This document shows positions 1 through 21,428 of a DNA stretch of 22,074 nucleotides, piece by piece (position 1 is the first letter of the stretch; each line of letters starts with the position of its first letter). Source of the stretch: a virus (Duplodnaviria; Heunggongvirae; Uroviricota; Caudoviricetes); the IMG/VR virus record IMGVR_UViG_643348545_000012, one strand, 5' to 3'. The notes below the pieces were generated by a model. The model searched no databases and was not told the DNA's origin. It was given only the letters and a program-made list of their open reading frames with translations. Both the position numbers and the translations under genes were made by a program.

Positions 1-2109
1 TTACACCATACTGTTAACCTGGCCGGGTAATTCGCTAGCTGGAATACGAAAGGTATACCAGGCATAACGACAGCGTTTCCACAGGCTGGAGAAATGGAGA
101 TGATAAAGGCAATCTGCAATAATTTCGTTATCTGGATATAAAGACTCGGCAAAATGTGTCCAGCGCGCACTGAGTTTCATGTTAAACAGTTTTTCATCTT
201 CTTTGTTACCATACAGGCGCGACAAAGTAATCATTGCTTCGAGCGTACCTTTATTCGCTTCTTCTTGTACCTGTTGGAGGTGCAAATGAGCAAGTGAGAG
301 TTCTTTCACCTCAAAGATATTAAGTAAAAAAAGCCCCCATGCTTTTTCATGTCCAGCTTCATGAGCCAGAAATAAATTGTCAAGGAGATTTTTTTCATAA
401 ATAGCCCGTGTTTCTTTAGAAATTTCTTGTTTATTTAGTGCCTGGTAGCAGATAGCAATGCTAAAATAAATATTTTGTAGATCTTGTTGATGTTCGCTAT
501 AACCATAATTTTTTACCAGTGGATAAGATACCGAGCTATGGAAATTTAGGTCATCTTGAAGTATTTTAAGTGCCCGTCGAAAATACTCCAAAGCTGTAGA
601 TGGTTCATAAGGTAATTTTGTATTGTCTTCCTTATCCAAATATTCAAGAGCAACTAAATTTAATGCGGCAGGAATATTTCTTTGCTTACCAATTGTCGCA
701 AGCGGAATGAAATAATCAGAAAGGTCAAACCAACTCAAATCTTTTATTGCCGACCGCCAATTATGATTGTATTTAATGTCACTAGCTTTTTCCAGCCAAG
801 CATCGCCCTGCCCTTCATCTTTTTCAAAACCCAAAATACCCTCTCGCTGGAAAAACCCCCTATAAATAACAGGTGTAGCATAAGTTGTATTCTGTGAATT
901 TTGGCAGATAAAATTATATATCCAGAATGAATCTGGATAATAACTTAATGCAAATTTTATCGCGTACGCAGTGTAATAATTATTGAGCTTCATGTCTTCC
1001 ATCACCGCTCGCTGTATACAGCACCACAACTTATCGTGATCGTTCTGCTTGTTATAGCAGGCAAGTAACCACTCTAGGGCATTATGGCGACATTCCTGAA
1101 ATTGTGCGTACTGAGCAATATTCTCTGCTAAGTCGATTGCATATTGTTGCTCCTCGGGCGCAATGTCCTCAATGCTGACATCTCGGTAATCATCCCACCA
1201 AAGTAAGAGATCCATATAGTCATGTTCTTCGGTAGATAAGTGCTTACAGGTTACTGAATCCAGCAATTCGGAAATTTCTTTATGCGACCCTCCCCAGCGT
1301 AGCATTCGAAATGGTATATATTCAACAAAAGGATAAAAAGTGTGAGGAAAAATAGTCAGGCAAACAGAAAGCCAATATTTTTGCCCACCATCATCATCAT
1401 ACTCAGGAAGTATATTGGGGCGAGGCAAAACGGGGCATATTGCATGCTCAAACGAAAGTCCGGAATACGCCATCAACGCTTCCACTTCTTGCGGGGAGCG
1501 GCGGTGATAATTTTTCAGTGCGATCATTAATGGTATTCCTGCGACACTATCACCGTTAAGGTGTGCCGCCAGCCAGGCTGGCTGACCAAATACTTTTGAG
1601 TTGGTGCTGGTAAGTAATGCAGCCATCCATTGTCGTGGGTCACAATCAATTGCTTTAAGTGTAGCGATGACCATTTGTTCATTACATGCACCAGCACAAA
1701 GCCACATTGCATGTGTGGTATCATTTGCCCAGCCATAACTGCGATATAACCATGCACGGTGATTCCAGTATTGTGCTTCGGCAAGCCAGGCATGTGTAGA
1801 ATGAGGTCTTGCTTGCTGCCAGGTTTTAATGAGTCTTAAACCTTCTGTTCCGGCATCAACTAGCGTGTTCATATCATAAAAATAGTTGCACATTTGGGTC
1901 CAGGATAAAAAATAGCGCTTTTCAGCCTGACGAGAAGTGAAACTCTCCTGTAATACCTGGTTATAAATTTCATCTAGTTCCTGATAACGTTTTTCTTGTA
2001 ACATATAAGGAATATTTGCGATTTGCCATTTTCTCTCAAGAGTATTAAGTGGCATTTTTTGGTCACACATCTTTTGCATTGCACTGAGTAAACGAGCATC
2101 CTGTTCCAT
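1..2109 (-). CDS. Hypothetical large protein, third gene of AT-rich operon; contains an HEAGH (HEXXH-type) motif near the C-terminus. The ORF extends to 2148 (715 aa) but the ATG at 2109 has an AAGGA Shine-Dalgarno about 7 nt upstream and avoids a 29-nt overlap with the upstream gene.
   Basis: Long uninterrupted ORF in the track (1..2148), stop at positions 1-3; RBS read upstream of the internal Met; low GC compared with neighbouring yegQ. Function not recognised. Confidence 0.6.
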   Translation of the reverse strand: MEQDARLLSAMQKMCDQKMPLNTLERKWQIANIPYMLQEKRYQELDEIYNQVLQESFTSRQAEKRYFLSWTQMCNYFYDMNTLVDAGTEGLRLIKTWQQARPHSTHAWLAEAQYWNHRAWLYRSYGWANDTTHAMWLCAGACNEQMVIATLKAIDCDPRQWMAALLTSTNSKVFGQPAWLAAHLNGDSVAGIPLMIALKNYHRRSPQEVEALMAYSGLSFEHAICPVLPRPNILPEYDDDGGQKYWLSVCLTIFPHTFYPFVEYIPFRMLRWGGSHKEISELLDSVTCKHLSTEEHDYMDLLLWWDDYRDVSIEDIAPEEQQYAIDLAENIAQYAQFQECRHNALEWLLACYNKQNDHDKLWCCIQRAVMEDMKLNNYYTAYAIKFALSYYPDSFWIYNFICQNSQNTTYATPVIYRGFFQREGILGFEKDEGQGDAWLEKASDIKYNHNWRSAIKDLSWFDLSDYFIPLATIGKQRNIPAALNLVALEYLDKEDNTKLPYEPSTALEYFRRALKILQDDLNFHSSVSYPLVKNYGYSEHQQDLQNIYFSIAICYQALNKQEISKETRAIYEKNLLDNLFLAHEAGHEKAWGLFLLNIFEVKELSLAHLHLQQVQEEANKGTLEAMITLSRLYGNKEDEKLFNMKLSARWTHFAESLYPDNEIIADCLYHLHFSSLWKRCRYAWYTFRIPASELPGQVNSMV

Positions 2110-2119
2110 AGATATCCTT

Positions 2120-2836
2120 TTAATTAGGTTCAAAAATTTTAAATTCATTCCACGGCAATTTTTTCCAGTTACTGGATGGATCTTTCAACCATGCAGTGAC
2201 TTCCTTTAAATCACGGTTCGCAGTGGCGACGGGGGTATCGTATATCATTAACCATTTTTGTCGGGCGCGAACATAAGCACTGGCATAATCTTCCCATGAA
2301 GCGAAACAATCTTGTGCTCTTTGAGCATTCAGTAATAACACTATCCAGGCCTGGTTTTCATCGCACCAGCCTAAACCGGCGATGCAACGAGTTAAAAAAG
2401 CAGTGCGCATACAGTCAAACGCCAGCCCATCCAGAACCTGGCCTTGTGCTGCCAGTTGTTCGTAAAAATCATGTGGAGAATTACCAAGCCCTGTAGCCCA
2501 GCGCTGTAATATAACGCCAATTTGTTGACGGAAATCTTCGTTGCTTTGGTAAGTTTCTGTTCCTAGCTCTTGTTTAACCTGTAGTGCAAGTTGTTGACGC
2601 TTATCATCAGTCAACTTTAAATCTAACGTGAAGCCATTTACTGACAGTCCATTACGACGAGCAACTATATCACCAATTGCTAATGCCCACTTACGTCTCT
2701 TTGTTGCTCGTCTTTTGTCCTTGATTAGATCCTTTTCTTTTTCTTTAGCAATAAAAGCATCGATTTGTGGTTTGTTTTTTTTGTATCTATAGATAAAAAT
2801 AAATATTGCGACCAGGAGAACAATGATAAGACTCAT
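2120..2836 (-). CDS. DUF1266-like (YbeU/YbeR-like) protein with N-terminal transmembrane helix
   Basis: 238 aa ORF; N-terminus MSLIIVLLVAIFIFIY is hydrophobic; C-terminal half with W/D-rich pattern ending ...WKKLPWNEF resembles my recollection of the DUF1266 family; start codon overlaps the stop of the upstream gene by 1 nt (TAATG), suggesting translational coupling. Confidence 0.6.
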   Translation of the reverse strand: MSLIIVLLVAIFIFIYRYKKNKPQIDAFIAKEKEKDLIKDKRRATKRRKWALAIGDIVARRNGLSVNGFTLDLKLTDDKRQQLALQVKQELGTETYQSNEDFRQQIGVILQRWATGLGNSPHDFYEQLAAQGQVLDGLAFDCMRTAFLTRCIAGLGWCDENQAWIVLLLNAQRAQDCFASWEDYASAYVRARQKWLMIYDTPVATANRDLKEVTAWLKDPSSNWKKLPWNEFKIFEPN

Positions 2837-4050
2837 TATTTTTCAACCTCTGACAGGGGTAAGTAATGAGATGTCTGTAATGTCAAACTCTCTATCTCAA
2901 AGGAAATGTTGCTGATATTTTGACCTGCAAATTGCGGATGCCACTCAGCGCCAGGGAATAACATTTCCGCAGAAGTAGCAACTATAGGGTCAATAGCATT
3001 AAGATAATGTAACTTATCAGGTGCGCTGTGTAACAGTAACCACTGCAACTCCACTGAAGGATTTGTAAAATGTTCTAATAAATGAAAGTTATTATGTAGT
3101 ACGCTTAGTAAAAAACTGGTTTCGTATACTTCCGTTACATATTTCCACCCCTGATATTCAGGTGTATTTTCATAAACAATACCCATACCTTCACAATCAC
3201 TATGTCGAACTGCTTGTGGTGATAATAGTTGCAAAAGAGACAAAACATCGTCCGCATATTTTTTAACTGGATGACGATTTTGCTTACCTTTTATTTGATC
3301 AATTTCAAGTGAATCACCAACAACATTGAGAGCAATAGTAACATGAGGAATATTATTATTATCACGCAAACTGAATAACCGTAATTTATGTTGCTCAATT
3401 TGATTTGCATAATACTCACCATAACCACCGGTAAGATTTTTTCGATCATCAAACTGGCCTACGCAATGTTGCATATGCCATGATTCATAAGCCATTTCAC
3501 GACGAAGGTTCGAATGACTGGCATCAAACTCAACAATTTTTCCGTCTGGCACATCAAGTATTGACTTTACAGTATTTTGTTCACTCGGCTGCCACCCTTT
3601 CTCGCGTCGTTGAAGCATCTTTTCATGCTCTTCTTCACGCATTCTGAACGCAACGTAGCAGGTTATGCGCTGTAGTTTTGATTCCAGACGGGTACCACAT
3701 TTCCTGGAAAGAAATTCCACCAACTCCCGTTCTTTGGTTAATATTTGTTGATGATCGGTTTCGATATAATAAAGTGTCGCAGTTGATACTGAGGCAGTAT
3801 TAAACTTCGATACCAGCCATTCCGGGATTACATCATCATTTTTATTAAACAGTGAATATTCTGCAAGCGAGTTAATTTGTTGCACCATTGGAAAGTCACT
3901 AATTAGCCATCGATAAAAATGGTTGAGTAACCATTTTTGGATGGTCTCATTATCCTGGCGAAACAGACTTCTTTGCAAAATTGCTGTTTTTACTTCCGGG
4001 GCATTAATTACATCCCTTGCATTATAATTCTGGTGAATATTTCCAGTCAT
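2836..4050 (-). CDS. Hypothetical protein (404 aa), first gene of AT-rich three-gene operon
   Basis: Long ORF in track, AT-rich codon usage, divergent from yegQ; no family recognised by eye. Confidence 0.6.
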   Translation of the reverse strand: MTGNIHQNYNARDVINAPEVKTAILQRSLFRQDNETIQKWLLNHFYRWLISDFPMVQQINSLAEYSLFNKNDDVIPEWLVSKFNTASVSTATLYYIETDHQQILTKERELVEFLSRKCGTRLESKLQRITCYVAFRMREEEHEKMLQRREKGWQPSEQNTVKSILDVPDGKIVEFDASHSNLRREMAYESWHMQHCVGQFDDRKNLTGGYGEYYANQIEQHKLRLFSLRDNNNIPHVTIALNVVGDSLEIDQIKGKQNRHPVKKYADDVLSLLQLLSPQAVRHSDCEGMGIVYENTPEYQGWKYVTEVYETSFLLSVLHNNFHLLEHFTNPSVELQWLLLHSAPDKLHYLNAIDPIVATSAEMLFPGAEWHPQFAGQNISNISFEIESLTLQTSHYLPLSEVEK

Positions 4051-4537
4051 AACATCCGCCCGTGTTTATTATATCACTCAAAGCAATAATTGTTGACTAT
4101 AGATTTTTTATCTAAATCAGCATGGTTGCAGGTACATACTCAAGTAAGCCACTCAAGAAAATAACGTAAACTCAATAGTGGCAGCGTCACAAACTTTGGA
4201 AATTATGTCTTATATTTGCAGTTTATTTTAGTGAATAATTGAGATAAATGACATTATTTTACATCCTCAATAATTCAGGCTGTAAGAGGACGGCAAATAC
4301 ATTCATAATTATCAGGGGATGAACATTCAGGAAAGTAGTCAGTATCGTCAACTTTTTCTTTTATCACTACATGAAGATTTCGTGTAGATACTCCCATCTC
4401 TGCCACTTCTCCCCTCACATTTACACTGGAGCTAAACCCGCCGATTGCGCTACAATGCCCGCCCTTAAAGTGGGGGCACTCCCCTAACCGCTTCATCAGG
4501 TGAAGCGGCTCTGACCTGTCATCAGAACGAGAGAATT

Positions 4538-5976: not shown

Positions 5977-5983
5977 CCGTTTC

Positions 5984-6070
5984 GCTGAAAAACATAACCC
6001 ATAAAATGCTAGCTGTACCAGGAACCACCTCCTTAGCCTGTGTAATCTCCCTTACACGGGCTTATTTTTT
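5984..6070 (+). ncRNA. cyaR: CyaR (RyeE) Hfq-dependent small RNA, 87 nt, with Rho-independent terminator
   Basis: Sequence gctgaaaaacataacccataaaatgctagctgtaccaggaaccacctccttagcctgtgtaatctcccttacacgggcttatttttt matches the CyaR sequence as I recall it; 3' hairpin (gcctgtgtaa / ttacacgggc) followed by a T-run. Confidence 0.8.
6044..6070. repeat. P2-type attachment core (27 bp, aatctcccttacacgggcttatttttt), left prophage junction; overlaps the cyaR terminator
   Basis: Exact 27-bp direct repeat with 21402-21428; reverse complement equals the P2 att core sequence as I recall it. Confidence 0.75.
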
Positions 6071-6171: not shown

Positions 6172-6390
6172 TTACATCCACATAATTTGCTGCCCTGACG
6201 GCAACGGGTGCGGCCTTACGGCGTGGACTTCTCCCGGCTTCACGATGTATCTCTGTACCGACTCATAAGTGATGAACGTGGCGCTGCAATTCACGTTCTG
6301 GCACTGGTGATAACGCTCTTTTGTCGTGTCAGTGATATAGCGGCTTGTACGCGCATGTGCGGCATGCTGGCATAAAGGACAATGAAACAT
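6172..6390 (-). CDS. ogr: Ogr-type zinc-finger late-gene transcriptional activator (72 aa)
   Basis: Internal Met of the 99-aa ORF gives MFHCPLCQHAAHARTSRYITDTTKERYHQCQNVNCSATF..., a C-x2-C...C-x4-C zinc finger matching P2 Ogr / E. coli OgrK. Confidence 0.9.
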   Translation of the reverse strand: MFHCPLCQHAAHARTSRYITDTTKERYHQCQNVNCSATFITYESVQRYIVKPGEVHAVRPHPLPSGQQIMWM

Positions 6391-6470
6391 CGCGAGCACC
6401 TCTTCCGGTTTTGTTAATGGTGCCATTTTATTTAATTTATCCTTATAAAACAAACAGATAAAACAAAACA

Positions 6471-7634
6471 TTAATCATCATCTTCTGTTTCGTACTCCAC
6501 ATCAGAAAGCCTGACCTCAAGCTCTAAGGACGTCGTGAAGCCGCTATTATTCAGAAAATGTGTCACCTTAGTGATTGTCCAGTCCTGCTCGTCTATGACG
6601 CGCTTAAAGCCTGACACTCTGACCGGTGTTTCCGTGTAAATATCAGCACGACCAGTGGCAAGGCTGATGGAGAACTCCGCAACGCCCCGTTGCAGTTTAT
6701 CCCACTTCGCCTGAGCGGCGCGCATGGCCTGCGCTTTCGTGGCATATACCGTGGTCAGGGCAAAAACGTTGTCAGCTTCACCGGCCATGTATTCACCTTC
6801 GCGCGCTTCCGGTACTTTTGGCGCTTTCTTCTGCGTGACTGGTTTCGCTTTCGGGTGCTCCAGTGCGCGCAGGTGTTTCTCTTTCTTTTTGCGTTTCAGT
6901 TTTACCTTCTGCTTTTGCGGCTTCGGGTCTTTGGTGTGTAACCACTTTGCCGTTACGCCGGTATAGGCTCCACGGTCAGCAATCGCAAAATGATGGCGGT
7001 CGCCGTCGCTGCGGGTTATGGTGACCTGCGGGATTTTTTTACCGCTGGCCGTCACCCCCTGCCCCGCTTTGAGAAACAACAGTTTTCCCATTTTTACCGA
7101 CACCTCACCGCCGTTGCGTTCTGCAAGACGGGTCAGGAATTTCGCATCAGACTCCTGCGACTGGTCGATGTGCGGGATTTTAATTCCGGCCAGTGACGGC
7201 GCGACACTGGCTTCCAGCCTGTTACGGGAGGCTATCGCCTCAACAATCGCACCGAGCGTGGTGTCATGCCATGACCCTTCACGGCGGGAATTGAGCGTCC
7301 CGCGAAAATCTGCACTCCGGGCGCGGATGGTGACCACATCCGGTGCGCCCCGGTGTTCAACCTCATCAACGGTAAATTTCCCTTTGCATACCAGGGCAAA
7401 ACCTTTCCAGCCGATATACACCTTCAGAACAGCACCACGAACCGGCAGTTCGACCTGCCCGTCGGCATCGTTCAGTTCAATATCAAGCTGGTCAGCCTCA
7501 AAGCCCCGGTTATCCGTCAGGGTCATGCTCATCAGACGGTCGCTGATATTGCCGGTAATATCCCTGCTGTCGAGCATCAGCATGTAATCCGGCGTCAGCG
7601 TACTGCCTGCATCAAATGTCAGCGCATCCAGCAT
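6471..7634 (-). CDS. D: P2-like tail protein D (late control gene D product)
   Basis: 387 aa ORF, same length and gene order as P2 gpD (immediately upstream of ogr). Confidence 0.9.
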   Translation of the reverse strand: MLDALTFDAGSTLTPDYMLMLDSRDITGNISDRLMSMTLTDNRGFEADQLDIELNDADGQVELPVRGAVLKVYIGWKGFALVCKGKFTVDEVEHRGAPDVVTIRARSADFRGTLNSRREGSWHDTTLGAIVEAIASRNRLEASVAPSLAGIKIPHIDQSQESDAKFLTRLAERNGGEVSVKMGKLLFLKAGQGVTASGKKIPQVTITRSDGDRHHFAIADRGAYTGVTAKWLHTKDPKPQKQKVKLKRKKKEKHLRALEHPKAKPVTQKKAPKVPEAREGEYMAGEADNVFALTTVYATKAQAMRAAQAKWDKLQRGVAEFSISLATGRADIYTETPVRVSGFKRVIDEQDWTITKVTHFLNNSGFTTSLELEVRLSDVEYETEDDD

Positions 7635-8113
7635 TATCCCGCCCCCGTCATACCCGTGAATCTGGTCGCCACACTGCCAGCCTTACCGATGAGCGATTCC
7701 GCCTGTTTACCGATATCGCCATAAAGCGCGGCCAGTGATTCATCCACGCGGGTGAGCGACAGCGTAAAATCAATTTTCCGGGGTGTGCCGTCTGCAAAGA
7801 AAATACTCCCTGTTTCACTCACCCTGCTGATGACATACATGCCGTAAATCATGCCGGTGCCATCCAGCAACGGCCACGCCCGGCCTTCCTCTGCCATCAG
7901 CCTGAGCGTGGTCATCGTCAGCTTCCCGCCGGTCAGTTCGGGATAAAGCACGCCGGCAAGCGTCATGTTTTCCTCACCCACACCGAGAAACTGAAAGGCA
8001 TCCCGTTTACCGATACGGGAATTTGACGGCCAGCGATAATCTGATTCACGCTGCATGGTCTGGTGTGGCAGCGTCTGGCGCATAAAAACAAACATACCTA
8101 ACGCGAGCATCAT
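7634..8113 (-). CDS. U: P2-like tail protein U
   Basis: 159 aa ORF; position between T and D; stop overlaps the D start (coupled). Confidence 0.88.
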   Translation of the reverse strand: MMLALGMFVFMRQTLPHQTMQRESDYRWPSNSRIGKRDAFQFLGVGEENMTLAGVLYPELTGGKLTMTTLRLMAEEGRAWPLLDGTGMIYGMYVISRVSETGSIFFADGTPRKIDFTLSLTRVDESLAALYGDIGKQAESLIGKAGSVATRFTGMTGAG

Positions 8114-8127
8114 TTTTCGTCACCTCC

Positions 8128-10575
8128 TTAACCGTCATGCATCATGCTGGCACGGGCACGCGCACGTTTATCCCGCTCGTATTTTTCGAGCGCATCCTGT
8201 AACTGGCGGTCAAGCTGTGTCCCCGGCGCAGTACCACCCGTCAGGCTGATGTGATATTCGTTTTTACTCTGGTCCACATAAGAGCGGCCAGCCAGTGCCG
8301 TGACTGGCTGATAAGCCTGATAGCCTGCATAAGAGCTGGTCGCCGGAATATAACCACCGGTGCCATACGTGGCGGCATGAGTTCTGGCGGCGGTCTGGTC
8401 AAGTGTGTCTGACTCTTTGTTGATGACCCCGAGCTTTTCCAGTACCCAGGCAATACCGCTGCGCAGTTTGTTGAACGCATTAAGCGGCAGCATCAGCGCG
8501 TCAGCCAGTGCCTGCCCGAACATGACACCCGTGTCACGGCAACGGTTCAGGGTGTCCTGGGTGGCTTTGACCGGGGCAATCAGGTTTTTAAACCACTGCC
8601 ACGCGGCCTGTAACTTTTCGCCCAGCCAGTCAAACACCGGCTTAAGTGGCATGAACAGTTCCCCCACCGGCGCAAATGCCGCTTTCAGCCCTTCCACCAC
8701 ACCGCCAAAGAATGCGCTGACAGGCTCCCAGTATTTACGGATAAGCAACGCCCCGGCGACAATGGCGGCCACCACGGCCACAACCGGCCAGCTAATCGCC
8801 CCGATGGCCGTCATAACAGCACTGCCAACCGTCGTGAAGATTGCCCCCATTGCGCCTGCTGCCGCGATAATGGCATTGATGCCGGTGATAACCGGCCAGG
8901 CTACAAGACCAATGGCACCGATGATGCCAGTCAGCGCCAGTGCGCCACCGGCAATGAGGCCGGTGGTTGACGCCAGTGATTTGTTTTTCTGGATCCAGCC
9001 GTCGAGTTTTAGCACATACTTTGTGGCTGTCTGCGTGAGATTACGCAGTGCGCCTTCCTGCTGGTCAAACAGGTCAGTCCCCACCGCCTCATAAGCGGAC
9101 TGAAACTCCTTAAAGTCACCGCCGAGGTTGTCCTGCATGATATTTACCAGCTCGGCGGTCTTCCCGTCTGAGGCTTTAAACGCAGCGGTCAGTTTGTCCA
9201 GCTTTCCGGTTGAGGCGGCAGTCATCAGCACGGCGGCGGCTGAGCTGGCCTCTTCCCCGAAAATAGTTTTCATGTATTCAGCCTGCTGGGCAGTACCGAG
9301 CCGGTTTTTCTCAAAACTGGCCTGCATTTCTTTCAGAATGGTAAATACTGGTCGGGTGTTTCCCTTGCTGTCTGAGGTTTTCACACCAAGCTCTTTCAGT
9401 GCATCCCACGCTTTTCCCGTCGGTGCCTGCAGGCGGCTTAACACGGCACGGCTTCCCGTCCCCGCCATTGAGCCTGTGATTTTTGCATCATGCAGCGCCC
9501 CGACCATTGCGGCGGTTTCTTCAATGCTGACACCGGCATTTTTTGCCACAGGTGCGGCATAGGTCAGCGCATCGCTCATGCCGTCAAAATCGGCGGCGGT
9601 TTTGTTCATCGTCATGGAGAGAACATCCCCGATATGAGCGACCTTATCGTTTGAAAGCTGAAAGGCGGATTTCATCCCCATCAGCAGGGCGGCGTTTTCT
9701 TCCATCGTGCGACGGTTCGCCAGCGCCATATTCAGCGTGACCGGCGTTGCCGCCTGAATGGCATCAACATCCCCACCGGCTTTTGCAATGATAATCTGCG
9801 CACCGGCTGCATCATCCGCCGAGGCGGCGGTGTTGTCGCCGAGCTGGCGCGCCTGTTTGCGGAGCGCGGCCATTTCGGCGGAGTCTTTTGCCACGCCGAG
9901 CACAGCCTGTAATTCTGAGTTTTTCTGCGCAAACTCATAACCGGGCATCAGCAGCTTAACTCCGGCCATCGTTCCCGCCGCCGCAATCCCCACACCGGCA
10001 GCGCCCACTGAGGCCATATTTCCGGCCAGTTCCTTTCCGGCCTGATAACGCTGTTTGACTGCGTTAAGTTTTGCCTGTTGCGCGCTGACACGCGCCAGCG
10101 CGTCACGCTGCCGGTTAAGCTGCGCGGTGGTTTCACTGATACGGTTTTTCAGCCCCTGCTCATCATGTGCAAGATTGCGGGTATTAATTCCCACAGCAGC
10201 CAGTTCCCGCTGCTGGCGTTTAACGGAATCCGTCAGGCGGTTATATTTCGCCTGTAAGTCCTCCGCCGCTCGCTTTGCGGATTCCAGCACTTTCGCCTGA
10301 GCACGGGTCGGACGTTCGGTATTTTTAAACTGTGTGGCAAGGGCTTCGGCTTCCAGCCGTGCCTTCTCAAGTGCATGACCAGTCACGGCGAGCTGTGCGC
10401 TGGTCTTGCGAAATCCCTCAATACGGGATGCGTGACCGTTCAGCTCGCGCAGTGATTTTTGTGTGTCCCGGATATCCCCCGACAGCGACTTGCTCGCTGT
10501 ACGGATGGATTTAAACGGGCGGGATGCCTGGTCAACAGCCCTGAGCAATACCTGTAATTTTACATTGTTACTCAT
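8128..10575 (-). CDS. T: Tail tape-measure protein (P2 gpT-like)
   Basis: 815 aa ORF with coiled-coil-rich N-terminus and Gly/Ala-rich hydrophobic central segment, typical of tape-measure proteins; lies directly downstream of E/E'. Confidence 0.92.
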   Translation of the reverse strand: MSNNVKLQVLLRAVDQASRPFKSIRTASKSLSGDIRDTQKSLRELNGHASRIEGFRKTSAQLAVTGHALEKARLEAEALATQFKNTERPTRAQAKVLESAKRAAEDLQAKYNRLTDSVKRQQRELAAVGINTRNLAHDEQGLKNRISETTAQLNRQRDALARVSAQQAKLNAVKQRYQAGKELAGNMASVGAAGVGIAAAGTMAGVKLLMPGYEFAQKNSELQAVLGVAKDSAEMAALRKQARQLGDNTAASADDAAGAQIIIAKAGGDVDAIQAATPVTLNMALANRRTMEENAALLMGMKSAFQLSNDKVAHIGDVLSMTMNKTAADFDGMSDALTYAAPVAKNAGVSIEETAAMVGALHDAKITGSMAGTGSRAVLSRLQAPTGKAWDALKELGVKTSDSKGNTRPVFTILKEMQASFEKNRLGTAQQAEYMKTIFGEEASSAAAVLMTAASTGKLDKLTAAFKASDGKTAELVNIMQDNLGGDFKEFQSAYEAVGTDLFDQQEGALRNLTQTATKYVLKLDGWIQKNKSLASTTGLIAGGALALTGIIGAIGLVAWPVITGINAIIAAAGAMGAIFTTVGSAVMTAIGAISWPVVAVVAAIVAGALLIRKYWEPVSAFFGGVVEGLKAAFAPVGELFMPLKPVFDWLGEKLQAAWQWFKNLIAPVKATQDTLNRCRDTGVMFGQALADALMLPLNAFNKLRSGIAWVLEKLGVINKESDTLDQTAARTHAATYGTGGYIPATSSYAGYQAYQPVTALAGRSYVDQSKNEYHISLTGGTAPGTQLDRQLQDALEKYERDKRARARASMMHDG

Positions 10576-10995
10576 TCGTGTTTCCGCTTCGCCGGAGCGC
10601 CTTTTCGCGCCATGTGATGAGTTCGGTCAGGCTCATGGGATACAGTTCTGATGGCGGCCAGTGAAATATCACTGCCACATCCGCCATCAGGTCATCGACC
10701 GACAGATTTTTCGGAAACGTCACTGCACCGAGTTCGGCGACAAAAAACCGACCACCTTACCGGCCAGCGCCACAAGGTCAGGCAGTTCCAGCGCGGCGAC
10801 TTCCTGCTCGGTCAGCATCGGTGCCGTCATGCGCGGCAGCACCTTAATCAGTGCATCGACTTCGGAGTTTGCAACCGCAGCCAGACTGACACCGCGCAGC
10901 GTCCCGGCATTGGGTTTCATCAGCGTGACCTGTTCGATAACCTGCTCACCACGTTTGACCGGATTTTCCAGGGTAATGACATTTTCTTTGTTCAT
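10568..10995 (-). CDS. E': E+E' fusion produced by programmed -1 ribosomal frameshift at T_TTT_TTG (reverse complement of 10741-10747); E' extension ends at TAA 10568-10570, overlapping the T start
   Basis: Slippery heptamer read directly; the -1 frame is open from the slip site to 10568 and encodes ...FFVAELGAVTFPKNLSVDDLMADVAVIFHWPPSELYPMSLTELITWREKALRRSGNTNE; frame arithmetic is consistent with a -1 shift; matches the known P2 E/E' mechanism. Confidence 0.7.
10720..10995 (-). CDS. E: Tail assembly chaperone E (P2 gpE-like), 91 aa
   Basis: ORF MNKENVITLENPVKRGEQ...GFLSPNSVQ; position between FII and T; contains slippery heptamer near its 3' end. Confidence 0.88.
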   Translation of the reverse strand: MNKENVITLENPVKRGEQVIEQVTLMKPNAGTLRGVSLAAVANSEVDALIKVLPRMTAPMLTEQEVAALELPDLVALAGKVVGFLSPNSVQ

Positions 10996-11051
10996 GGTTT
11001 TCTCACTTCTGAATCAGGGTTAACCGGTCAGCCTGGCTGACCGTATGAAAA

Positions 11052-11570
11052 TCACAGGCCGATATTTCGGCGGTGTTGCTCCAGCCGGTCGACGCCGTTC
11101 ACCTTCTCAATCATGTTGATGGTGTCGATTTCGACCAGCTCCTTACCGTCCATCGTCAGCCGGAAATAAGTACAAATCACCGGGAGTTTCGATTCGGTAT
11201 CCTCTCCCTGTTTACCCTCTCCGGTGTCGACTTCTTTCTGACGCCCACGCATGACCACTTCGACGGCCACCGTTTCGCCGGTATCGTCGCGCTGGTAAGA
11301 ACCAGCAAAACGAATCGGTACGGCATCAGCACTGGTTGCAGCGTAAAGCTCCCAGATAACCGAATCCGGGAAACCCCCGAGCGACCACTCCATTGACAGC
11401 GCATCGTCATCAAGGCCGAGGTCTACCGGTGCGCTGCCGTTCATCCCCGCACCGCGATAATTTTCGAGCTTACGGGTCAGTTTTGGCAGCGTGACGGACG
11501 TTGCAACGCCCTGATAGCTGTAGCCGTTCAGAAAGACATTCATGTATTTGAGTTTGCGCGGCATTGCCAT
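11052..11570 (-). CDS. FII: Major tail tube protein (P2 gpFII-like)
   Basis: 172 aa ORF, gene order sheath-tube-E-T as in P2. Confidence 0.9.
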   Translation of the reverse strand: MAMPRKLKYMNVFLNGYSYQGVATSVTLPKLTRKLENYRGAGMNGSAPVDLGLDDDALSMEWSLGGFPDSVIWELYAATSADAVPIRFAGSYQRDDTGETVAVEVVMRGRQKEVDTGEGKQGEDTESKLPVICTYFRLTMDGKELVEIDTINMIEKVNGVDRLEQHRRNIGL

Positions 11571-11582
11571 CGGTCAGGCTCC

Positions 11583-12773
11583 TTAATTGCTGTTAACCGA
11601 GGTGACCAGATTTGCCAGGTATTTATCGGTAATACGCTGGCGCAGGGTCAGGTTTTCGAGAGGAGGCACCGGGGTATAGTCGTAGTCGATATACAGTTTT
11701 CCGGCCTTGAGGGTTTCCGCATCGTTGGATTCTTCGCTGAACCAGCAGGTCGCATCCACGATATAGCCGTTTGTTTTCAGCTCTCGGAATTTGGCATTGA
11801 TGCCGTCAACGATGTCGCGAATCAGCGTTGCGGTGATGGGCTTGTCCACCGCCCACATGTGCGCCTCAGCCATCGTGTCGGCCAGCACCTGCGCGGTGCG
11901 GGTGTAGTTTTCAAAGAGGAACAGCGGGTCATCAGAGCAGGTACGGTTACCCCAGAAGCGGAAACCGTCACGGCGAATCAGCGTTGTGACGCCTGACTCG
12001 TTAAGCAGGTCAGCATCGGTGCCGGACTCCTGCAAATCCCAGAATACGGACGCGCTGATGCCGGTAACACCGTTTACCCCGACGTTGGACAGCGTTTTAT
12101 GCCAGCCCTGCTCCTGGTCGATTTTAGCGCGCAGACCCAGCGCACGGGCGGTGGCATACGCGGTGGCGGTGGTACTGGTGACCGTATCCCATGCGAGGAA
12201 ATCCGGCCAGATGACCATCAGCTCACGCTGGCTGAAATTCTGGCGGTAGGCTTTCACCTCGGAAATGGTCTTACAGCCCCATGCGCTGATATATCCGAAA
12301 GCGCGCAGCTTCTGACAGACGGATGCCAGTGCAACAGCCACCTCTTTGGTATCCAGTCCCGGCACACCGAGAATACGCGGTTTAACACCGGTTACCGACT
12401 CCGCCGCCAGCAGGGCTTTTAGTCCGGTGTACTGACCGTTTTCGTCGGTGGTGCCGATGATATTGGAAACGGTCTGCGCGAGTTTCGTTTCCTCGTCATC
12501 ACCGGTGCCGTCTTCCACGCGCACGACAACGGTGACCGGTTTTGACTGGTCAGCGATGGCCTGCAACGATGCCGCCAGCGTGCCTTTTTTACCGGCCTTT
12601 GCAATTGCGCTTTGCACATTGGTAATCAGCACCGGTTTATTGAGGGGGAAGGTTTCCGCATCCGCATCGCTGGCCGTGCAGACCATGCCGACAATGGCAG
12701 TGGATACGGTGGAAATGACGCGGGTGCCGTCGTTAATCTCCAGCACCTGCACGCCATGATGATAGTCACTCAT
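11583..12773 (-). CDS. FI: Tail sheath protein (P2 gpFI-like)
   Basis: 396 aa ORF beginning MSDYHHGVQVLEINDG, same length and position as P2 gpFI. Confidence 0.92.
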   Translation of the reverse strand: MSDYHHGVQVLEINDGTRVISTVSTAIVGMVCTASDADAETFPLNKPVLITNVQSAIAKAGKKGTLAASLQAIADQSKPVTVVVRVEDGTGDDEETKLAQTVSNIIGTTDENGQYTGLKALLAAESVTGVKPRILGVPGLDTKEVAVALASVCQKLRAFGYISAWGCKTISEVKAYRQNFSQRELMVIWPDFLAWDTVTSTTATAYATARALGLRAKIDQEQGWHKTLSNVGVNGVTGISASVFWDLQESGTDADLLNESGVTTLIRRDGFRFWGNRTCSDDPLFLFENYTRTAQVLADTMAEAHMWAVDKPITATLIRDIVDGINAKFRELKTNGYIVDATCWFSEESNDAETLKAGKLYIDYDYTPVPPLENLTLRQRITDKYLANLVTSVNSN

Positions 12774-12869
12774 CCGTTTAACTCCGTGGTTAATGGGTGC
12801 AACTATTTTCTGTTGGGCAGTGCATGAGACGCTATTTGACCTGACTGGTCAGTGGATGAAACAACAGAT

Positions 12870-12898
12870 AAAGAAAAGGCGGGCAATTCGCCCGCCTG
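12870..12898 (-). terminator. Rho-independent terminator (hairpin GGCGGGC-aattc-GCCCGCC followed on the minus strand by TTTTCTTTAT), separating the cargo module from the FI late operon
   Basis: Perfect GC-rich 7-bp stem at 12880-12898 with T-rich tract on the minus strand. Confidence 0.55.
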
Positions 12899-12952
12899 TC
12901 CTGATTTGTACTCACTCATTTTCCGCCTGACAATTTACATAGCCCAAATGCT

Positions 12953-12975
12953 ATCAAATCTGACAGTCTGCTTTG
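12953..12975. repeat. Site A: atcaaatctgacagtctgctttg, copy 1 of a ~22-bp putative recombination site
   Basis: Shares the exact 11-mer ctgacagtctg plus flanks with sites at 15262-15284 (direct, 21/23) and 15384-15405 (inverted). Confidence 0.6.
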
Positions 12976-13103
12976 AGCGAAAAGTGGACATTAGAGTTAC
13001 AAAAGCAAGTTTAAATCATCCAAAATATTACAATGTCCTTATCTATCTGATATCGTTATAATAAAAAGCTCCTGAATATAATCGATAGTAGGTGGTTATT
13101 TCC

Positions 13104-13481
13104 ATGAAATCAATTTTAGAGGTTTTTACTCAAGGAAATACTAAAGAAAAACTGGCTGTTATCGCCGATCTCACAACCATTGCGGGAATATCGATTGCAA
13201 CTATTATTGCTGGTTTGTTAACCCTAGTTGCAAAAACAGATAAACTAGATGTTGGAAATCTGTTTGGAGTTGTCATAATATCTCTGCTCGGATTGGCTGG
13301 TGTTTGCTGTTTTGTGGCCTTATTTATTTGGGTTATAACCCAAATGTCTAAACCATGGGGAACACCTCGGGGGGTTCAGCCCTTAGTTAAGTGTGCTATT
13401 TCCCTTATCTTTATCTGTATGTTTTTGCTGGCTGTCTTTACATTTTATGAGTTTATTTCTTCGATGAGCATACGCTATTGA
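13104..13481 (+). CDS. Small integral membrane protein (about 125 aa, 3 predicted TM helices), cargo gene
   Basis: ORF in track (13092..13481, likely ATG at 13104 with aggtgg RBS); three long hydrophobic stretches; AT-rich. Confidence 0.55.
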   Translation: MKSILEVFTQGNTKEKLAVIADLTTIAGISIATIIAGLLTLVAKTDKLDVGNLFGVVIISLLGLAGVCCFVALFIWVITQMSKPWGTPRGVQPLVKCAISLIFICMFLLAVFTFYEFISSMSIRY

Positions 13482-13503
13482 ATATAAAATCAGCCCCCAT
13501 AAC

Positions 13504-14088
13504 TTAAAAGAGACCTTCTATATCGACTTCAATGCCCAAATAACGGACTGTGCTTTCCAGTTTCTTATGGCCCAACAGAAGTTGGATCACCCGGAGACTC
13601 TTGGTTTTCTTGTAGATTAAGTAAGGTTTTGTTCTTCTCATGGAATGTGTGCTGTACAGCGAATCTTCGAGACCAAGCTTTTCTACCCACCCATGAAAAA
13701 TTCGGTTGTATTGCCGGGTTGATATATGGTGGTTAGTTCCGACCCGAGAGCGGAACAGGAAGCCTTTACTATGCCAGTTGCCGAGCTTTATCAATGCAGT
13801 AACCGCTTCCCTTGTCCCTTTGGTTATCTCAAATTGGACAGGGCTGCCGGTTTTCTGTTGCAACACCGTTGCTCTGCTTGAGACAGAACTGCCATATGCA
13901 GCATCTGATACTTTGAGTTTGACCAAATCACAGCCCCGTAGCTTAGTGTCCAAAGCCATGTTGAACAGAGCTAGATCGCGTGTTTTACCTTCCAACTCAA
14001 GTCTAATCCGGATCCCCCAGATATGAGATATCTGAAGTGGCCTTTTTTGACCGATGGTACGGTCTTTATTCCACGGTGACGTTTTCAT
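13504..14088 (-). CDS. Short tyrosine recombinase (FimB/FimE-sized, about 194 aa)
   Basis: C-terminus HSMRRT...LLGHKKLESTVRYLGIEVD carries the box II H-x-x-R, second His and nucleophile Tyr; earlier TKLRGCDL supplies a candidate box I Arg. The track ORF starts at 14190, but the ATG at 14088 has an AGGAG RBS 8 nt upstream and gives a protein the size of FimB/FimE. Confidence 0.75.
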   Translation of the reverse strand: MKTSPWNKDRTIGQKRPLQISHIWGIRIRLELEGKTRDLALFNMALDTKLRGCDLVKLKVSDAAYGSSVSSRATVLQQKTGSPVQFEITKGTREAVTALIKLGNWHSKGFLFRSRVGTNHHISTRQYNRIFHGWVEKLGLEDSLYSTHSMRRTKPYLIYKKTKSLRVIQLLLGHKKLESTVRYLGIEVDIEGLF

Positions 14089-14194
14089 ATTCAAATCTCC
14101 TGCAATGTGGGAGATTTGAGTATGGTTGTCTCTCAAGAGCGAAAATAAGTCAACTATCACTAGTTGTTGCGCATGTACGTATTCTGTCAATTAA

Positions 14195-15037
14195 TTATTG
14201 ACAATCATCAATTCTGGAATGATCAAAATCATCATATCGAATTATAGTCTGGTTGACTGTATCTATTGTTGGTGTCATTTCTGTTATAATATCCTGATAA
14301 CCTAAAGAGTTAAATACATTTACTAAGGCCTCACACCGAAGGGCCGTAGCAATTACAAAATTATAAATTGCCAGCCGTTTATTTTCTTGTTTAACTGCAA
14401 GAATGAATTCGATAGCAGTATTTTCATCACTTTGGATTGCATTATATAGAGATACTATATTTACCATATCATCAGAGAATGTATGTATTGAATCACAAAG
14501 GGGAACGTAATGGGCATGATAGTGTGTTTCCCAGCCAATTAATTCAAAAAGTTTTCTGGTTCCTGGATATTCAGGTGTATTTGGCCACAATCTATTAAAT
14601 AGATCAGTTAGTTCTTTTCCCATGCGAATCCTTTCATTTGCTGCTGGATTAGTCATTCCTTTGGATTTTAAACACTCCAGCCACCGTTTTCCATTACTAT
14701 GAACTAATTTCTTACTAGCCTTGAGTAATGCTTGTGCATTTTCGCCATCATCTATTGCTATATAAAATTGATTGGCAGCCTGTTCTATTATAACCCTAGC
14801 TAATACTTCCGATGCTGAAAAGGCTCCTATATTCAAAGAAGAGATAGCCTGATTACTAAGTTCATTCAGTACATTAAAGTACTGTAAGACCATCAATTTT
14901 TGTTCCACACCCTTTAGGTTGTCTATTTTATTTTTATGCTCCTCAAATTTTGCATGGATATATTTATTTATCGCGGCTATTTTTTTTACATCTTCGTCAA
15001 GATCAAACGGGCAACGTCCAAACAATTCTTTTTTCAT
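14195..15037 (-). CDS. Hypothetical cytoplasmic protein (280 aa), cargo gene upstream of the recombinase
   Basis: ORF with AGGAG RBS 7 nt upstream of ATG; AT-rich; no recognisable motif (no RT YxDD, no clear nuclease or HEPN motif). Confidence 0.6.
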   Translation of the reverse strand: MKKELFGRCPFDLDEDVKKIAAINKYIHAKFEEHKNKIDNLKGVEQKLMVLQYFNVLNELSNQAISSLNIGAFSASEVLARVIIEQAANQFYIAIDDGENAQALLKASKKLVHSNGKRWLECLKSKGMTNPAANERIRMGKELTDLFNRLWPNTPEYPGTRKLFELIGWETHYHAHYVPLCDSIHTFSDDMVNIVSLYNAIQSDENTAIEFILAVKQENKRLAIYNFVIATALRCEALVNVFNSLGYQDIITEMTPTIDTVNQTIIRYDDFDHSRIDDCQ

Positions 15038-15075
15038 ATATTTCTCCTGTTGTACAAGCTTCCATAAGTTGGCAG

Positions 15076-15110
15076 ATTATACACTGAAGATTACCTATAA
15101 ATAGCTGTGC
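15076..15110 (-). promoter_or_regulatory. Candidate sigma70 promoter for the 280-aa cargo gene (perfect TATAAT on the minus strand at 15081-15076; weak -35)
   Basis: Reverse complement of attata at 15076-15081, about 38 nt upstream of the ATG at 15037; -35 element poor, so speculative. Confidence 0.3.
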
Positions 15111-15261
15111 GGGATAGCAGATCAGTGCAAGAAGTACAACCAAGTGAATGTGCGTATTCAGATACCTGGCCTAACGTTCGCGATAGCCGTCCCCTGCACG
15201 AAGCCATATATTAGATGTATTAGCTCAGACCTTATCTGACAGGTTGAGTAGGTAGAATCTA

Positions 15262-15284
15262 ATCAAAGCTGACAGTCTGGTTTG
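15262..15284. repeat. Site B: atcaaagctgacagtctggtttg, direct copy of site A
   Basis: 21 of 23 positions identical to site A; read directly. Confidence 0.6.
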
Positions 15285-15383
15285 GACTGTGAGTTCAACC
15301 GATGGATGCAACACACAGCGATCTACGGACATTACTAGCATAGCTGTGTATTAATCATCGGGAAGCAGGTCAGTCCGCTCCTA

Positions 15384-15405
15384 GCACAGAGCAGACTGTC
15401 AGATT
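15384..15405. repeat. Site C: inverted copy of the site (reverse complement aatctgacagtctgctctgtgc); also part of a 10-bp-stem hairpin tagcacagag...ctctgtgcta (15382-15423)
   Basis: Reverse complement matches site A at 20 of 22 positions; lies 47 bp downstream of the G stop codon. Confidence 0.6.
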
Positions 15406-15457
15406 AGGCTTTACTCTGTGCTATAGATACGTTAGCTCACTCCAGAGATCATACAAC

Positions 15458-15985
15458 TTATTGCGGCATTTCCGGCCATTCAGGATTTGCAGGATCCACA
15501 CGGCTGACCAGAACACTGTAGCGTTCCCATGCTTCCAGTCGGCTACGCTCCTCATCTGTTGCCATATTCAGTCTGACAGAGCGTTCCAGTGGCTGAATGA
15601 TAGTTTCAGCTTCGGAAAGCAAAGCTGACTTCTGTAATTCCGCCAGTTGCAGCTGTTCGTCTGCCGTATAAATCCGCTTAATCACGGCACCATCCTTAAA
15701 CATCCATTTACCTGAGTCATCAGCACGTCGGTTGGCGGTAATATCAGGAACCTCGACAACGCTAAAACCTTCAGGGTTGAGCGTTGAAGCATCTCTGGTG
15801 ATGCCGACAATTATATTATTCTCATCGTAAACAATCTTTATCGTGTCTTCCTGAAAATTACTTACTTCCTCATACCAGTTTTTTCCCTCTTCGGACCATA
15901 ACCAGATAACATCAAAATTTTTTGTCAGTTGATATTGGGCAACAGTTTTTGGATTACCCGCAGTAATATTTTTTAAATGCTGCAT
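15458..15985 (-). CDS. G: Tail fiber assembly chaperone (P2 gpG-like)
   Basis: 175 aa ORF immediately downstream of the tail fiber gene; same length as P2 gpG; Tfa-like sequence. Confidence 0.88.
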
Positions 15986-15988
15986 AAA

Positions 15989-18094: not shown

Positions 18095-18104
18095 TATTCC
18101 TCAC

Positions 18105-18635
18105 TTATCCGGGGTAAACCGTAATTACATCGCCGTCGTAAGCCACACCACCGGCGAACAGGTAGCCGGGAATGTCCCGGGTAATGTTCAGGCCAATAAG
18201 GTGACGGCTTGCAGGTTTGGCATCAGCAATCAGCCGTTCCATTTCCTGATACATTGCCTCTGTGATACCGCTTTCCAGTACACCAATATCAAGCCGGAAG
18301 GTGCCGGGCGGGTCACTGTTTTCCCACCACTCCGTCACGTTGATGAGATAGCCGAGCGGCTCCACCACACGCCGGATTGCACCTATCGTGCCCTTATGAC
18401 AGTGGATGAAATAGGCATCGCGGATAACGGCGCGTTTTGTCGCTTCCGGCCACTTTTCATCCCATCTGTCGACCGAAAACGCCCACGCCAGCCACGGCAG
18501 CAGATTTGCCGGACAGGTATTCGGGTTCCACAGATCACGAATACTGACCGGCGTTTTTTCAATTTCCGCACAGGCTTTTGCGGCGGCAACTTCAAGCGGT
18601 GATGAGCCGGTCGGCAGCAGTCGCGAATCACTCAT
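18105..18635 (-). CDS. I: Baseplate assembly protein I (P2 gpI-like)
   Basis: 176 aa ORF, position between J and H. Confidence 0.9.
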   Translation of the reverse strand: MSDSRLLPTGSSPLEVAAAKACAEIEKTPVSIRDLWNPNTCPANLLPWLAWAFSVDRWDEKWPEATKRAVIRDAYFIHCHKGTIGAIRRVVEPLGYLINVTEWWENSDPPGTFRLDIGVLESGITEAMYQEMERLIADAKPASRHLIGLNITRDIPGYLFAGGVAYDGDVITVYPG

Positions 18636-19536: not shown

Positions 19537-19540
19537 GGTT

Positions 19541-19888
19541 TCAACTCACAGGGATGGTTAACGAAAGTGGCTGGCCGGTGTCGTTGTGCTGGCCGGTTAA
19601 CGTGACCGTCATTCGCCCGTCAAAACTGCGCGCCGTGGTGACGGATGACAGGGTGACGCGGGGTTCCCATTTCAGCACTGCCATGTAACAGGCGACTTTA
19701 ATCTGCAACTCAAGCGCCGGGGTCTGCGGCTGGTCAATCATTGACGCCAGCAACGAGCCGTAATCACGACGCATCACCCGTGAGCCGACCGGTGTGCGCA
19801 GGATATCGCCGATACTCTGGCTGATATGCTCAAGGTCAGTGACAGTCAGGCCATCACTGCGATTCATTCCGAGATAACGCGCTGTCAT
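19541..19888 (-). CDS. W: Baseplate protein W (gp25/GPW family)
   Basis: 115 aa ORF beginning MTARYLGMNRSDG; start overlaps V stop (ATGA). Confidence 0.9.
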   Translation of the reverse strand: MTARYLGMNRSDGLTVTDLEHISQSIGDILRTPVGSRVMRRDYGSLLASMIDQPQTPALELQIKVACYMAVLKWEPRVTLSSVTTARSFDGRMTVTLTGQHNDTGQPLSLTIPVS

Positions 19889-20520: not shown

Positions 20521-20603
20521 GCATGTGAGATTGCACAATATATAAAAGTTATGCTATCTGGATTCATTTGTAGAACTACCAGACAACATTCAAGGAGAGC
20601 GTA

Positions 20604-21317: not shown

Positions 21318-21401
21318 AGTAACGTTTAAGGGCTTTCAGTGGTAATTTATGCCGCTCAAACCCGCATTGTACCGTTGAAAGCCCCTACTGGTGACACCCT
21401 A

Positions 21402-21428
21402 AATCTCCCTTACACGGGCTTATTTTTT
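21402..21428. repeat. Second copy of the 27-bp P2-type att core (right prophage junction)
   Basis: Exact direct repeat of 6044-6070; followed by a hairpin gggcttat...ataagccc. Confidence 0.7.

Follow-up and report, generated by a model that had tools for sequence, protein, structure and literature searches.

We analysed a 22,074-nucleotide stretch of DNA from a virus record (IMG/VR IMGVR_UViG_643348545_000012; hereafter the window), which is 100% identical to Escherichia coli ATCC 11775. Positions 1-4446 carry three genes of an AT-rich operon, which encode a PcfJ-domain protein, a DUF1266 protein and a large repeat (solenoid) protein and which, as set out below, form a co-inherited module. 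An open reading frame (ORF) scan placed three minus-strand ORFs of 404, 238 and 715/702 amino acids (aa) within window 1-4050, and both these ORFs and the RefSeq annotation agree with a preliminary description of the sequence, which had listed three tightly packed minus-strand genes of 404, 238 and ~702 aa. The principal features are as follows.

2836-4050, minus strand: gene 1, PcfJ-superfamily protein, 404 aa (WP_000147372.1), with a helical N-terminal domain, a predicted GNAT-like core and helices at the C-terminus
2120-2836, minus strand: gene 2, DUF1266 protein, 238 aa (WP_000052543.1), translationally coupled to gene 1
1-2109, minus strand: gene 3, DUF4034 and Sel1-like-repeat protein, 702 aa (WP_000434216.1), its stop codon at window 1-3
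4051-4446, no strand: AT-rich island DNA 5' of gene 1, with the right island edge at 4446/4447

The operon and the island in the yegP-yegQ spacer

Genes 1 and 2 overlap by 1 nucleotide (nt) in a TAATG junction (AAATAATGAG), as the preliminary description had noted when it proposed translational coupling at this point. At the second junction, for which a very short gap or overlap had been predicted, the stop codon TAA of gene 2 is followed by AAGGATATCT and then ATG; this is a 10-nt gap, and it contains a Shine-Dalgarno-like AAGGA ahead of the RefSeq start of gene 3. The longest ORF of gene 3 spans 1-2148 (715 aa, from an upstream ATG at 2148), and the RefSeq start at 2109 gives the 702-aa product. 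The operon diverges from yegQ and its function has not been described, both as stated earlier. A promoter scan returned a sigma-70-like site (TCAACA-17-TATAAT with an upstream TG; 4096-4068, minus strand) 18 nt ahead of the gene 1 start codon; it is no more than a match to the consensus, and such sites were no more numerous than in shuffled sequences.

To the right, homology with island-free genomes begins at 4446/4447 and not at the compositional boundary near 4390 that had been suggested. By blastn against K-12, the island (L001 11245-16446) measures 5202 bp and stands in place of 21 bp of the K-12 yegP-yegQ spacer, so that its left edge lies 756 bp before the window start. The gene order in the type strain is baeR, yegP, a gene for a 201-aa hypothetical protein (minus strand), the DUF4034, DUF1266 and PcfJ genes (all minus strand) and yegQ. 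The suspicion that the island runs past the window start was therefore correct, by 756 bp and one further gene, and the proposal that it had replaced yegP was not: an intact yegP lies just left of the window, past the fourth island gene. Replacement of yegP is thus rejected for E. coli; the equivalent site in Klebsiella does lack yegP. The lower GC content relative to yegQ and the horizontal acquisition read from it were both upheld, since the module has 39.7% GC (the three genes 37.8-40.7%, with 30-35% at third codon positions, GC3) against 54.3% for yegQ (GC3 64%), and is missing from K-12 and from ~94% of complete E. coli genomes. Among the marks of a genomic island, only this compositional deviation and the presence/absence polymorphism were found; there was no integrase or recombinase among the four island genes, and there were no terminal direct or inverted repeats.

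The fourth gene (L001:11335-11940, minus strand) lies 61-666 bp to the left of window position 1. Its 201-aa product (WP_000928864.1) has an N-terminus that resembles a signal peptide and gave no family match in PADLOC, PHROG and further family searches. The gene travels with the island and was counted in 300 E. coli genomes. Because it is missing from all 80 of the foreign loci described below, we regard it as a local addition and exclude it from the conserved module. The earlier idea of a three-gene unit is accordingly right about the three genes, whereas the unit in E. coli has four, and the conserved core consists of the PcfJ-DUF1266 pair plus a variable solenoid partner. Salmonella record CP075030.1 encodes a 40%-identical homologue of the 201-aa protein, at a distance of 12.6 kb from its PcfJ gene.

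In one other genome (L003:5425-6019), a ParDE toxin-antitoxin cassette occupies the yegP-yegQ spacer; counted by presence and not by position, this cassette was detected in 1845 of the 5426 genomes. The ParDE and island alleles share ~62 bp of left flank and ~30 bp of right flank (window 4417-4446) that are missing in K-12, which suggests cassette exchange at one site.

Linkage, distribution and origin of the PcfJ-DUF1266-solenoid module

A DUF1266 gene lay directly downstream of the PcfJ gene in 79 of 80 species-level loci, and the sole exception was a 2.9-kb contig that ends at that point. The third partner varied. By tblastn, a DUF4034 gene followed DUF1266 in 36 of the 80 loci, in Enterobacteriaceae, Variovorax, the Burkholderia cepacia complex, Chitinilyticum, Iodobacter and Lysobacter. 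Crude clustering of ORFs from the same loci assigned a DUF4034-type ORF to 34 of them and a ~790-aa TPR-like protein, encoded immediately upstream of PcfJ, to 38; the latter layout occurs in Pseudomonas, Trinickia, Ralstonia, Cupriavidus, Delftia, Niveibacterium and one Treponemataceae metagenome-assembled genome (loci L038-L083, e.g. L065:7617-9980 and L088:5680-8010). The six ~790-aa members inspected end in a Trp-rich tail (WWQIWK, WWRFWR, FWQFWK). Homology between the DUF4034 partner and the ~790-aa partner was sought by BLASTP and hhalign, and both were negative.

The pairing extends to single polypeptides. PcfJ and DUF1266 were fused in all ten long close representatives tested and in several others besides; such fusions occur in at least 12 lineages; P0221 joins PcfJ, DUF1266 and TPR, and P0232 joins PcfJ and TPR. 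A DUF1266-DUF4034 fusion (P0135) was seen too; its source, a read-archive assembly, calls for caution. Where the genes are separate they overlap or abut in Klebsiella, Burkholderia and Pseudomonas as well. Between two Citrobacter copies (synonymous divergence, dS, ~0.27 in all three genes), the ratio of nonsynonymous to synonymous divergence (dN/dS) was 0.07 for PcfJ, 0.16 for DUF1266 and 0.17 for DUF4034; all three genes are under purifying selection, PcfJ most strongly. We conclude with high confidence that PcfJ, DUF1266 and a solenoid constitute a co-inherited, selected module. Because linkage, fusions, overlaps and selection all point to such a module, its three products very likely associate physically.

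The preliminary description had allowed for these being core genes of most Escherichia. They are not: 298 of 5426 complete E. coli genomes carried the three genes, in every case as a single copy on the chromosome, with at least 99% identity in 295 of the 298 carriers and at least 80% of the segment covered in all of them. Carriers include CFT073, UTI89, F11, LF82, Nissle 1917, avian pathogenic E. coli (APEC) O1/O2/O18 strains and the type strain; the site is empty in K-12 and in one sequence type 131 (ST131) genome. Homologues of the 404-aa protein are found in Klebsiella, Salmonella, Citrobacter, Serratia, Burkholderia, Variovorax, Pseudomonas, Lysobacter, Rhizobium and others. The module occupies the same baeR-yegQ interval in the Klebsiella oxytoca group (L004, P0004), Citrobacter and Buttiauxella, with proteins 56-60% identical to those of E. 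coli, and the Klebsiella loci have no yegP. In these enteric baeR-yegQ copies (L004, L005, L007, L036, L084) the module is co-directional with yegQ, opposite to its orientation in E. coli. The Citrobacter and Buttiauxella loci contain an additional unidentified ORF of 237-264 aa upstream. In Salmonella enterica (P0019, P0018, P0138, P0140, P0141), many copies of the two genes are shortened, PcfJ to 294 aa and DUF4034 to 395-521 aa, which suggests that the module is decaying in some serovars.

We next compared the GC content of the module with that of its flanks.

E. coli: module 39.7%, flanks 54-56%
Klebsiella: module 48.9%, flanks 56-59%
Pseudomonas: module 62.9%, upstream flank 61.2%
Burkholderia: module 69.9%, flanks 68.5-69.3%

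By these values, beta-proteobacteria and pseudomonads appear to be native hosts of the module, and enterics to have imported it. Its neighbours in Klebsiella, Burkholderia and Pseudomonas vary by genus and resemble ordinary chromosomal genes. Carriage by mobile elements was considered and rejected: the module was in none of 50,697 phage records and in 8 of 72,556 plasmid records, all of them non-mobilizable replicons of 0.3-1.3 Mb, and the island has neither an integrase nor terminal repeats.

These distributional data bear on the possibility that the module is an anti-phage or abortive-infection-type conflict system, in which the repeat protein would sense, PcfJ would act as effector and DUF1266 would couple this effector to the membrane. 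The patchy, accessory occurrence of the module in E. coli and its AT-richness in enterobacterial hosts count in favour of this, as do a spacer that carries ParDE in the one locus examined (the cassette being present in 1845 other genomes), a P2-like prophage one gene away and sensor-like solenoid partners that are swapped between lineages. Distant PcfJ domains are moreover found as parts of giant multidomain proteins, together with InPase or topoisomerase IB, and in targets diversified by diversity-generating retroelements (PMC5758913). Several results count against it. The only match in PADLOC-DB 2.0 was PDC-S32 to the DUF4034 protein (E 1.3e-3, no qualifying stretch), the other three island proteins had no PADLOC match and none had a PHROG match, so that a catalogued defence system is rejected; further, the Pseudomonas and Burkholderia modules have host-like GC and housekeeping-type neighbours and are syntenic between species. 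Because the module is absent from phages and mobilizable plasmids and sits in ordinary neighbourhoods, the case for defence is weakened. We consider a conflict system unlikely overall, and still the main alternative for the biological role; it concerns biology and is compatible with the transferase mechanism proposed below.

Predicted folds, candidate active site and proposed mechanism

Within the three products, the following regions were delimited.

3136-3573, minus strand: predicted GNAT-like alpha/beta core of the gene 1 product, ~residues 160-305 (AlphaFold2 model)
3463-3468, minus strand: His195-Cys196, candidate catalytic or metal-binding pair, invariant in 88 sequences
3277-3297, minus strand: Q252-I-K-G-K-Q-N258 loop, lying between strand 247-254 and helix 263-276 (DSSP of the model)
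2780-2836, minus strand: predicted N-terminal hydrophobic membrane-anchor helix of the gene 2 product, MSLIIVLLVAIFIFIYRYK, followed by a strongly basic stalk (Kyte-Doolittle 2.09 over 19 residues)
1192-2022, minus strand: DUF4034 domain of the gene 3 product, residues 30-306 of the 702-aa protein or 43-319 of the 715-aa ORF (Pfam, translation check)
190-900, minus strand: Sel1-like repeat region, ~residues 404-640 (family profile)
349-363, minus strand: HEAGH, residues 583-587, a Sel1-repeat signature (column counts, n=53)

The gene 1 product, which had gone unrecognised in the preliminary description, is a PcfJ-domain protein. It matched the Pfam PcfJ-like family (PF14284) over residues 141-268 with 26.2 bits (cut-off 25, E 7.5e-6), and this marginal match is backed by profile links to proteins with PcfJ scores of up to 116 bits and by shared invariant motifs. 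A profile of the gene 1 family reached 2119 clusters with E <= 1e-3, of which 51 had E <= 1e-30. No acetyltransferase family was found in Pfam at E <= 0.1, the family profile had 0 matches to PDB sequences at E <= 10, and NCBIfam, PADLOC and PHROGs added no assignment for the module proteins. By sequence, neither the PcfJ protein nor DUF1266 nor the N-terminal domain of the DUF4034 protein has a solved relative. Some distant PcfJ proteins (P0246, P0269, P0309, P0314) are 1250-3300 aa long and contain two or three PcfJ domains, and the giant members are fused to eukaryote-type topoisomerase IB, InPase, DUF7178 or LRV/HEAT repeats.

The AlphaFold2 model of gene 1, built with 88 homologues (mean predicted local distance difference test score, pLDDT, 89; predicted template-modelling score, pTM, 0.76), comprises a helical N-terminal domain (17-150), an alpha/beta core (~160-305) and C-terminal helices. 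Its secondary-structure elements follow one another in an order that is compatible with GNAT topology, and FemX and Leu/Phe-tRNA transferase were among the GNAT-fold matches in Foldseek; with moderate confidence we predict a GNAT-acyltransferase-like fold for the core. Q252, K254, G255, K256, Q257 and N258 are invariant in the gene 1 family. In 47 distant PcfJ domains, H195 is retained in 43, Q252 and N258 in 44 each, and C196, R229, H236, T238 and G255 in all 47; M193, G198, S227, D230, P235, K254, K256 and Y265 are conserved there as well. As judged from the alignments, this set is an active-site-like constellation more than a purely structural one. In GNAT enzymes, motif A, (Q/R)-x-x-G-x-(G/A), forms the loop between beta4 and alpha3 that binds the pyrophosphate of coenzyme A (CoA), and the Q252-N258 loop, after the fourth core strand of the model, would occupy the motif A position. 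Three points weigh against reading gene 1 as a GNAT enzyme. The motif A equivalence was read from the order of secondary-structure elements, not from superposition; the last motif A position is Gln (Q257) and not Gly or Ala; and the invariant Cys-His pair is unusual for GNATs and could reflect different chemistry or a structural metal site.

The middle protein was correctly described as DUF1266-like with an added N-terminal transmembrane anchor. The gene 2 product matched DUF1266 (PF06889) with 68.7 bits (cut-off 27), and its AlphaFold2 model (pLDDT 86) is all-alpha with a continuous helix from residue 2 to 53. A hydrophobic N-terminus with basic residues was present in 38 of 40 aligned standalone DUF1266 partners; the other two start after it. 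By the positive-inside rule, the basic flank of a membrane helix stays cytoplasmic, and because the basic stalk follows the anchor helix we place the DUF1266 domain on the cytoplasmic side, at the membrane. The linkers of PcfJ-DUF1266 fusions are either non-hydrophobic or contain a long hydrophobic stretch; several of the latter have two segments or a central proline, either of which suggests a hairpin. They are compatible with both domains lying on the cytoplasmic side. Against membrane association as a general feature, many fusions have no hydrophobic segment at all, so that tethering is not universal.

In view of the membrane tether, the substrate of the GNAT-like enzyme might be a membrane lipid or an envelope precursor and not a protein, with DUF1266 positioning the enzyme at the membrane. 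FemX and MprF-type synthases are GNAT-fold aminoacyl or acyl transferases, and such an activity would accord with an obligate partner that is membrane-tethered, with the FemX and Leu/Phe-tRNA transferase matches, and with two conserved lysines in the putative donor loop that could bind a phosphorylated or nucleotide donor. These matches, however, were no better than those to protein or small-molecule acetyltransferases, the fusions that lack a membrane segment fit it poorly, the big TPR/Sel1 partners point to protein recognition, and no lipid or cell-wall genes were linked in the Klebsiella, Burkholderia and Pseudomonas neighbourhoods. We therefore regard a lipid or envelope substrate as very unlikely.

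The gene 3 product matched DUF4034 (PF13226) with 333.2 bits (cut-off 21.3) across positions 2-274 of the 274-position domain. Positions 404-519 of its family profile matched the solved Sel1 proteins 6ur7_A (E 5e-7, several stretches) and SEL1L (5b26_A, E 1.3e-3). Sel1-like repeats in general are helix pairs of ~36-44 residues arranged in tandem, with the signature A-x-x-G...A...L-G. Pfam Sel1 was recorded in the distant homologues P0143 and P0144 and was not detected at E <= 0.1 in the E. coli protein itself. The preliminary description had singled out HEAGH as a possible zincin metalloprotease site, and an HEXXH string is indeed present at residues 583-587. It does not align with a conserved catalytic site: among 53 homologues the catalytic Glu is kept in only 27 (Gln in 18) and the two His in 36 and 37, whereas the best-conserved positions are the Ala before the motif (48) and the Gly within it (47). 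The resulting pattern, A-H-[EQ]-x-G-H, matches the Sel1 repeat A-x-x-G-(H/D), the adjoining C-terminal region is the one that matches solved Sel1-repeat proteins, and no peptidase family was found in Pfam or NCBIfam. On the strength of column conservation and Sel1 context we reject the protease reading, which is almost certainly wrong.

We propose that the module is a membrane-associated, scaffold-guided transferase complex that transfers an acyl group onto a client, a tentative reading to which we give somewhat less than an even chance. Most of a 5.2-kb accessory operon of four genes lies in window 1-4446; the operon is inserted between yegP and yegQ in some E. coli, among them well-known extraintestinal pathogenic strains (ExPEC). 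We infer that its three conserved products most likely form a single complex at the inner membrane, on the cytoplasmic side. The PcfJ subunit would be the enzyme, with a GNAT-like core bearing the invariant His-Cys, Arg, His-x-Thr, Q-x-K-G-K-x-N and Tyr; the DUF1266 protein would be its obligate partner or adaptor, tethered through the N-terminal hydrophobic helix; and the alpha-solenoid of DUF4034 and Sel1-like repeats would be a client- or ligand-binding scaffold. The solenoid might recruit a target, most likely a protein, onto which the PcfJ subunit would transfer a group, with acyl from an acyl-CoA-type donor as the likeliest chemistry. Our confidence in acyl transfer as such is low, and the donor, the acceptor and the physiological role are speculative.

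Further features were seen in the rest of the window. Between yegQ and ogrK is the gene for the small RNA CyaR (RyeE; 5982-6067, plus strand; Rfam 100.7 bits), which borders on a P2-like prophage. The late region of this prophage (6172-20538, minus strand) includes ogrK, D and genes for a tail protein, tape measure, E/E', tube, sheath, tail-fibre assembly, tail fibre and baseplate; K-12 retains only ogrK and a fragment of the D gene here. Two AT-rich cargo slots were seen. The first (12800-15450, 35-45% GC), between the sheath and tail-fibre-assembly genes, corresponds to the P2 Z/fun position and holds a 129-aa ORF (13092-13481, plus strand), a truncated tyrosine recombinase (13504-14190, minus strand) and a DUF5677 protein (14195-15037, minus strand), none of the three with a PADLOC match. 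The second (20560-22074, 35-41% GC), after a baseplate V-like gene, holds a 237-aa ORF (20604-21317, plus strand) with no Pfam or PADLOC match and a second ORF (21757-22074, minus strand) cut by the window end.

Significance and relation to known systems

A literature search on DUF4034, PcfJ-like proteins, DUF1266, the Pfam and WP accessions and the yegP/yegQ hotspot returned nothing relevant; the single DUF1266 paper found covers another locus tag, EC042_RS03510, which we assume to be one of the ybeR/ybeU paralogues. Three families without described function (PcfJ, DUF1266 and DUF4034) are now joined in a defined, testable unit, which we view as an obligate pair of putative enzyme and adaptor with a swappable solenoid partner. 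A fold can be proposed and candidate catalytic residues named (H195, C196, R229, H236, T238, K254, G255, K256, N258 and Y265), and, as the ExPEC and probiotic strains in widest use (CFT073, UTI89, LF82 and Nissle 1917) carry the module and K-12 lacks it, deletion and transplantation are straightforward. A role in defence, stress protection or host-associated fitness, should one be demonstrated, would be relevant to what sets these E. coli lineages apart.

Among the closest known systems are the GNAT superfamily (ESCO1/Eco1, RimL, SpeG, RibT) and the PcfJ-like family (PF14284), which is named after PcfJ of the Enterococcus faecalis plasmid pCF10. With the latter, gene 1 has in common the motifs M-x-H-C-x-G, S-L-R-D, P-H-x-T and Q-x-K-G-K-x-N. 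It differs in forming a distinct ~400-aa chromosomal subfamily that is always paired or fused with DUF1266 and is not found in phage records or mobilizable plasmids. As PcfJ itself has no known function, membership of its family indicates no mechanism. Sel1-like adaptors (6ur7, SEL1L 5b26) resemble gene 3 over residues ~404-520 and in further repeats that include the HEAGH repeat; unlike them, gene 3 devotes its N-terminal 300 residues to a separate DUF4034 domain with no solved relative, lacks a signal peptide and stands in an operon with a putative enzyme and a membrane anchor.

The module also has ties to obscure DUF1266/Sel1 genes beside hscC in K-12. There, the DUF1266 genes ybeR and ybeU each overlap a J-domain gene (djlB or djlC) and lie beside a Sel1/TPR gene (ybeQ or ybeT) and hscC, and hhalign identifies YbeR and YbeU as homologues of the gene 2 family (probability 89%, E ~2e-6). 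By analogy, the module might be a proteostasis or co-chaperone-type adaptor system, in which DUF1266 and the Sel1/TPR protein hand clients to a PcfJ protein that binds them and performs no group transfer. That homology and the two K-12 sets near an Hsp70 gene speak for it; on the other side, no J-domain or Hsp70 gene was found near the module in neighbourhoods with Pfam-annotated gene calls, and what the ybe/hscC locus does is itself ill understood. Because the polar constellation of PcfJ is kept superfamily-wide and its gene is under the strongest purifying selection of the three, catalysis is favoured over mere binding, and we judge a pure adaptor system to be quite unlikely.

Returning to the transferase reading, a bolder version holds that PcfJ-type proteins are an unrecognised Cys/His-dependent branch of the GNAT fold and that the module is a new class of membrane-associated, scaffold-guided machine for protein modification, possibly in defence or stress, which shares its DUF1266-Sel1/TPR adaptor logic with the HscC/DjlB/DjlC locus; taken jointly, these claims are doubtful. 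If true, they would offer a first way into the function of three DUF families and of the PcfJ-domain clusters, of which bacteria have more than 2000. Compared gene by gene, the ybeQ-ybeR-djlB and ybeT-ybeU-djlC-hscC sets and the island share the pairing of DUF1266 with a Sel1/TPR protein and the coupling of the DUF1266 gene to a third protein. They differ in that the third protein is a J-domain co-chaperone with the Hsp70 HscC in K-12 and a putative PcfJ-type enzyme in the island, that DUF1266 precedes its partner in K-12 and follows it in the island, and that the island solenoid is far bigger (702 aa with a DUF4034 domain). Because the K-12 loci share this layout, a solenoid, a DUF1266 protein and a tightly coupled third protein are a recurring arrangement.

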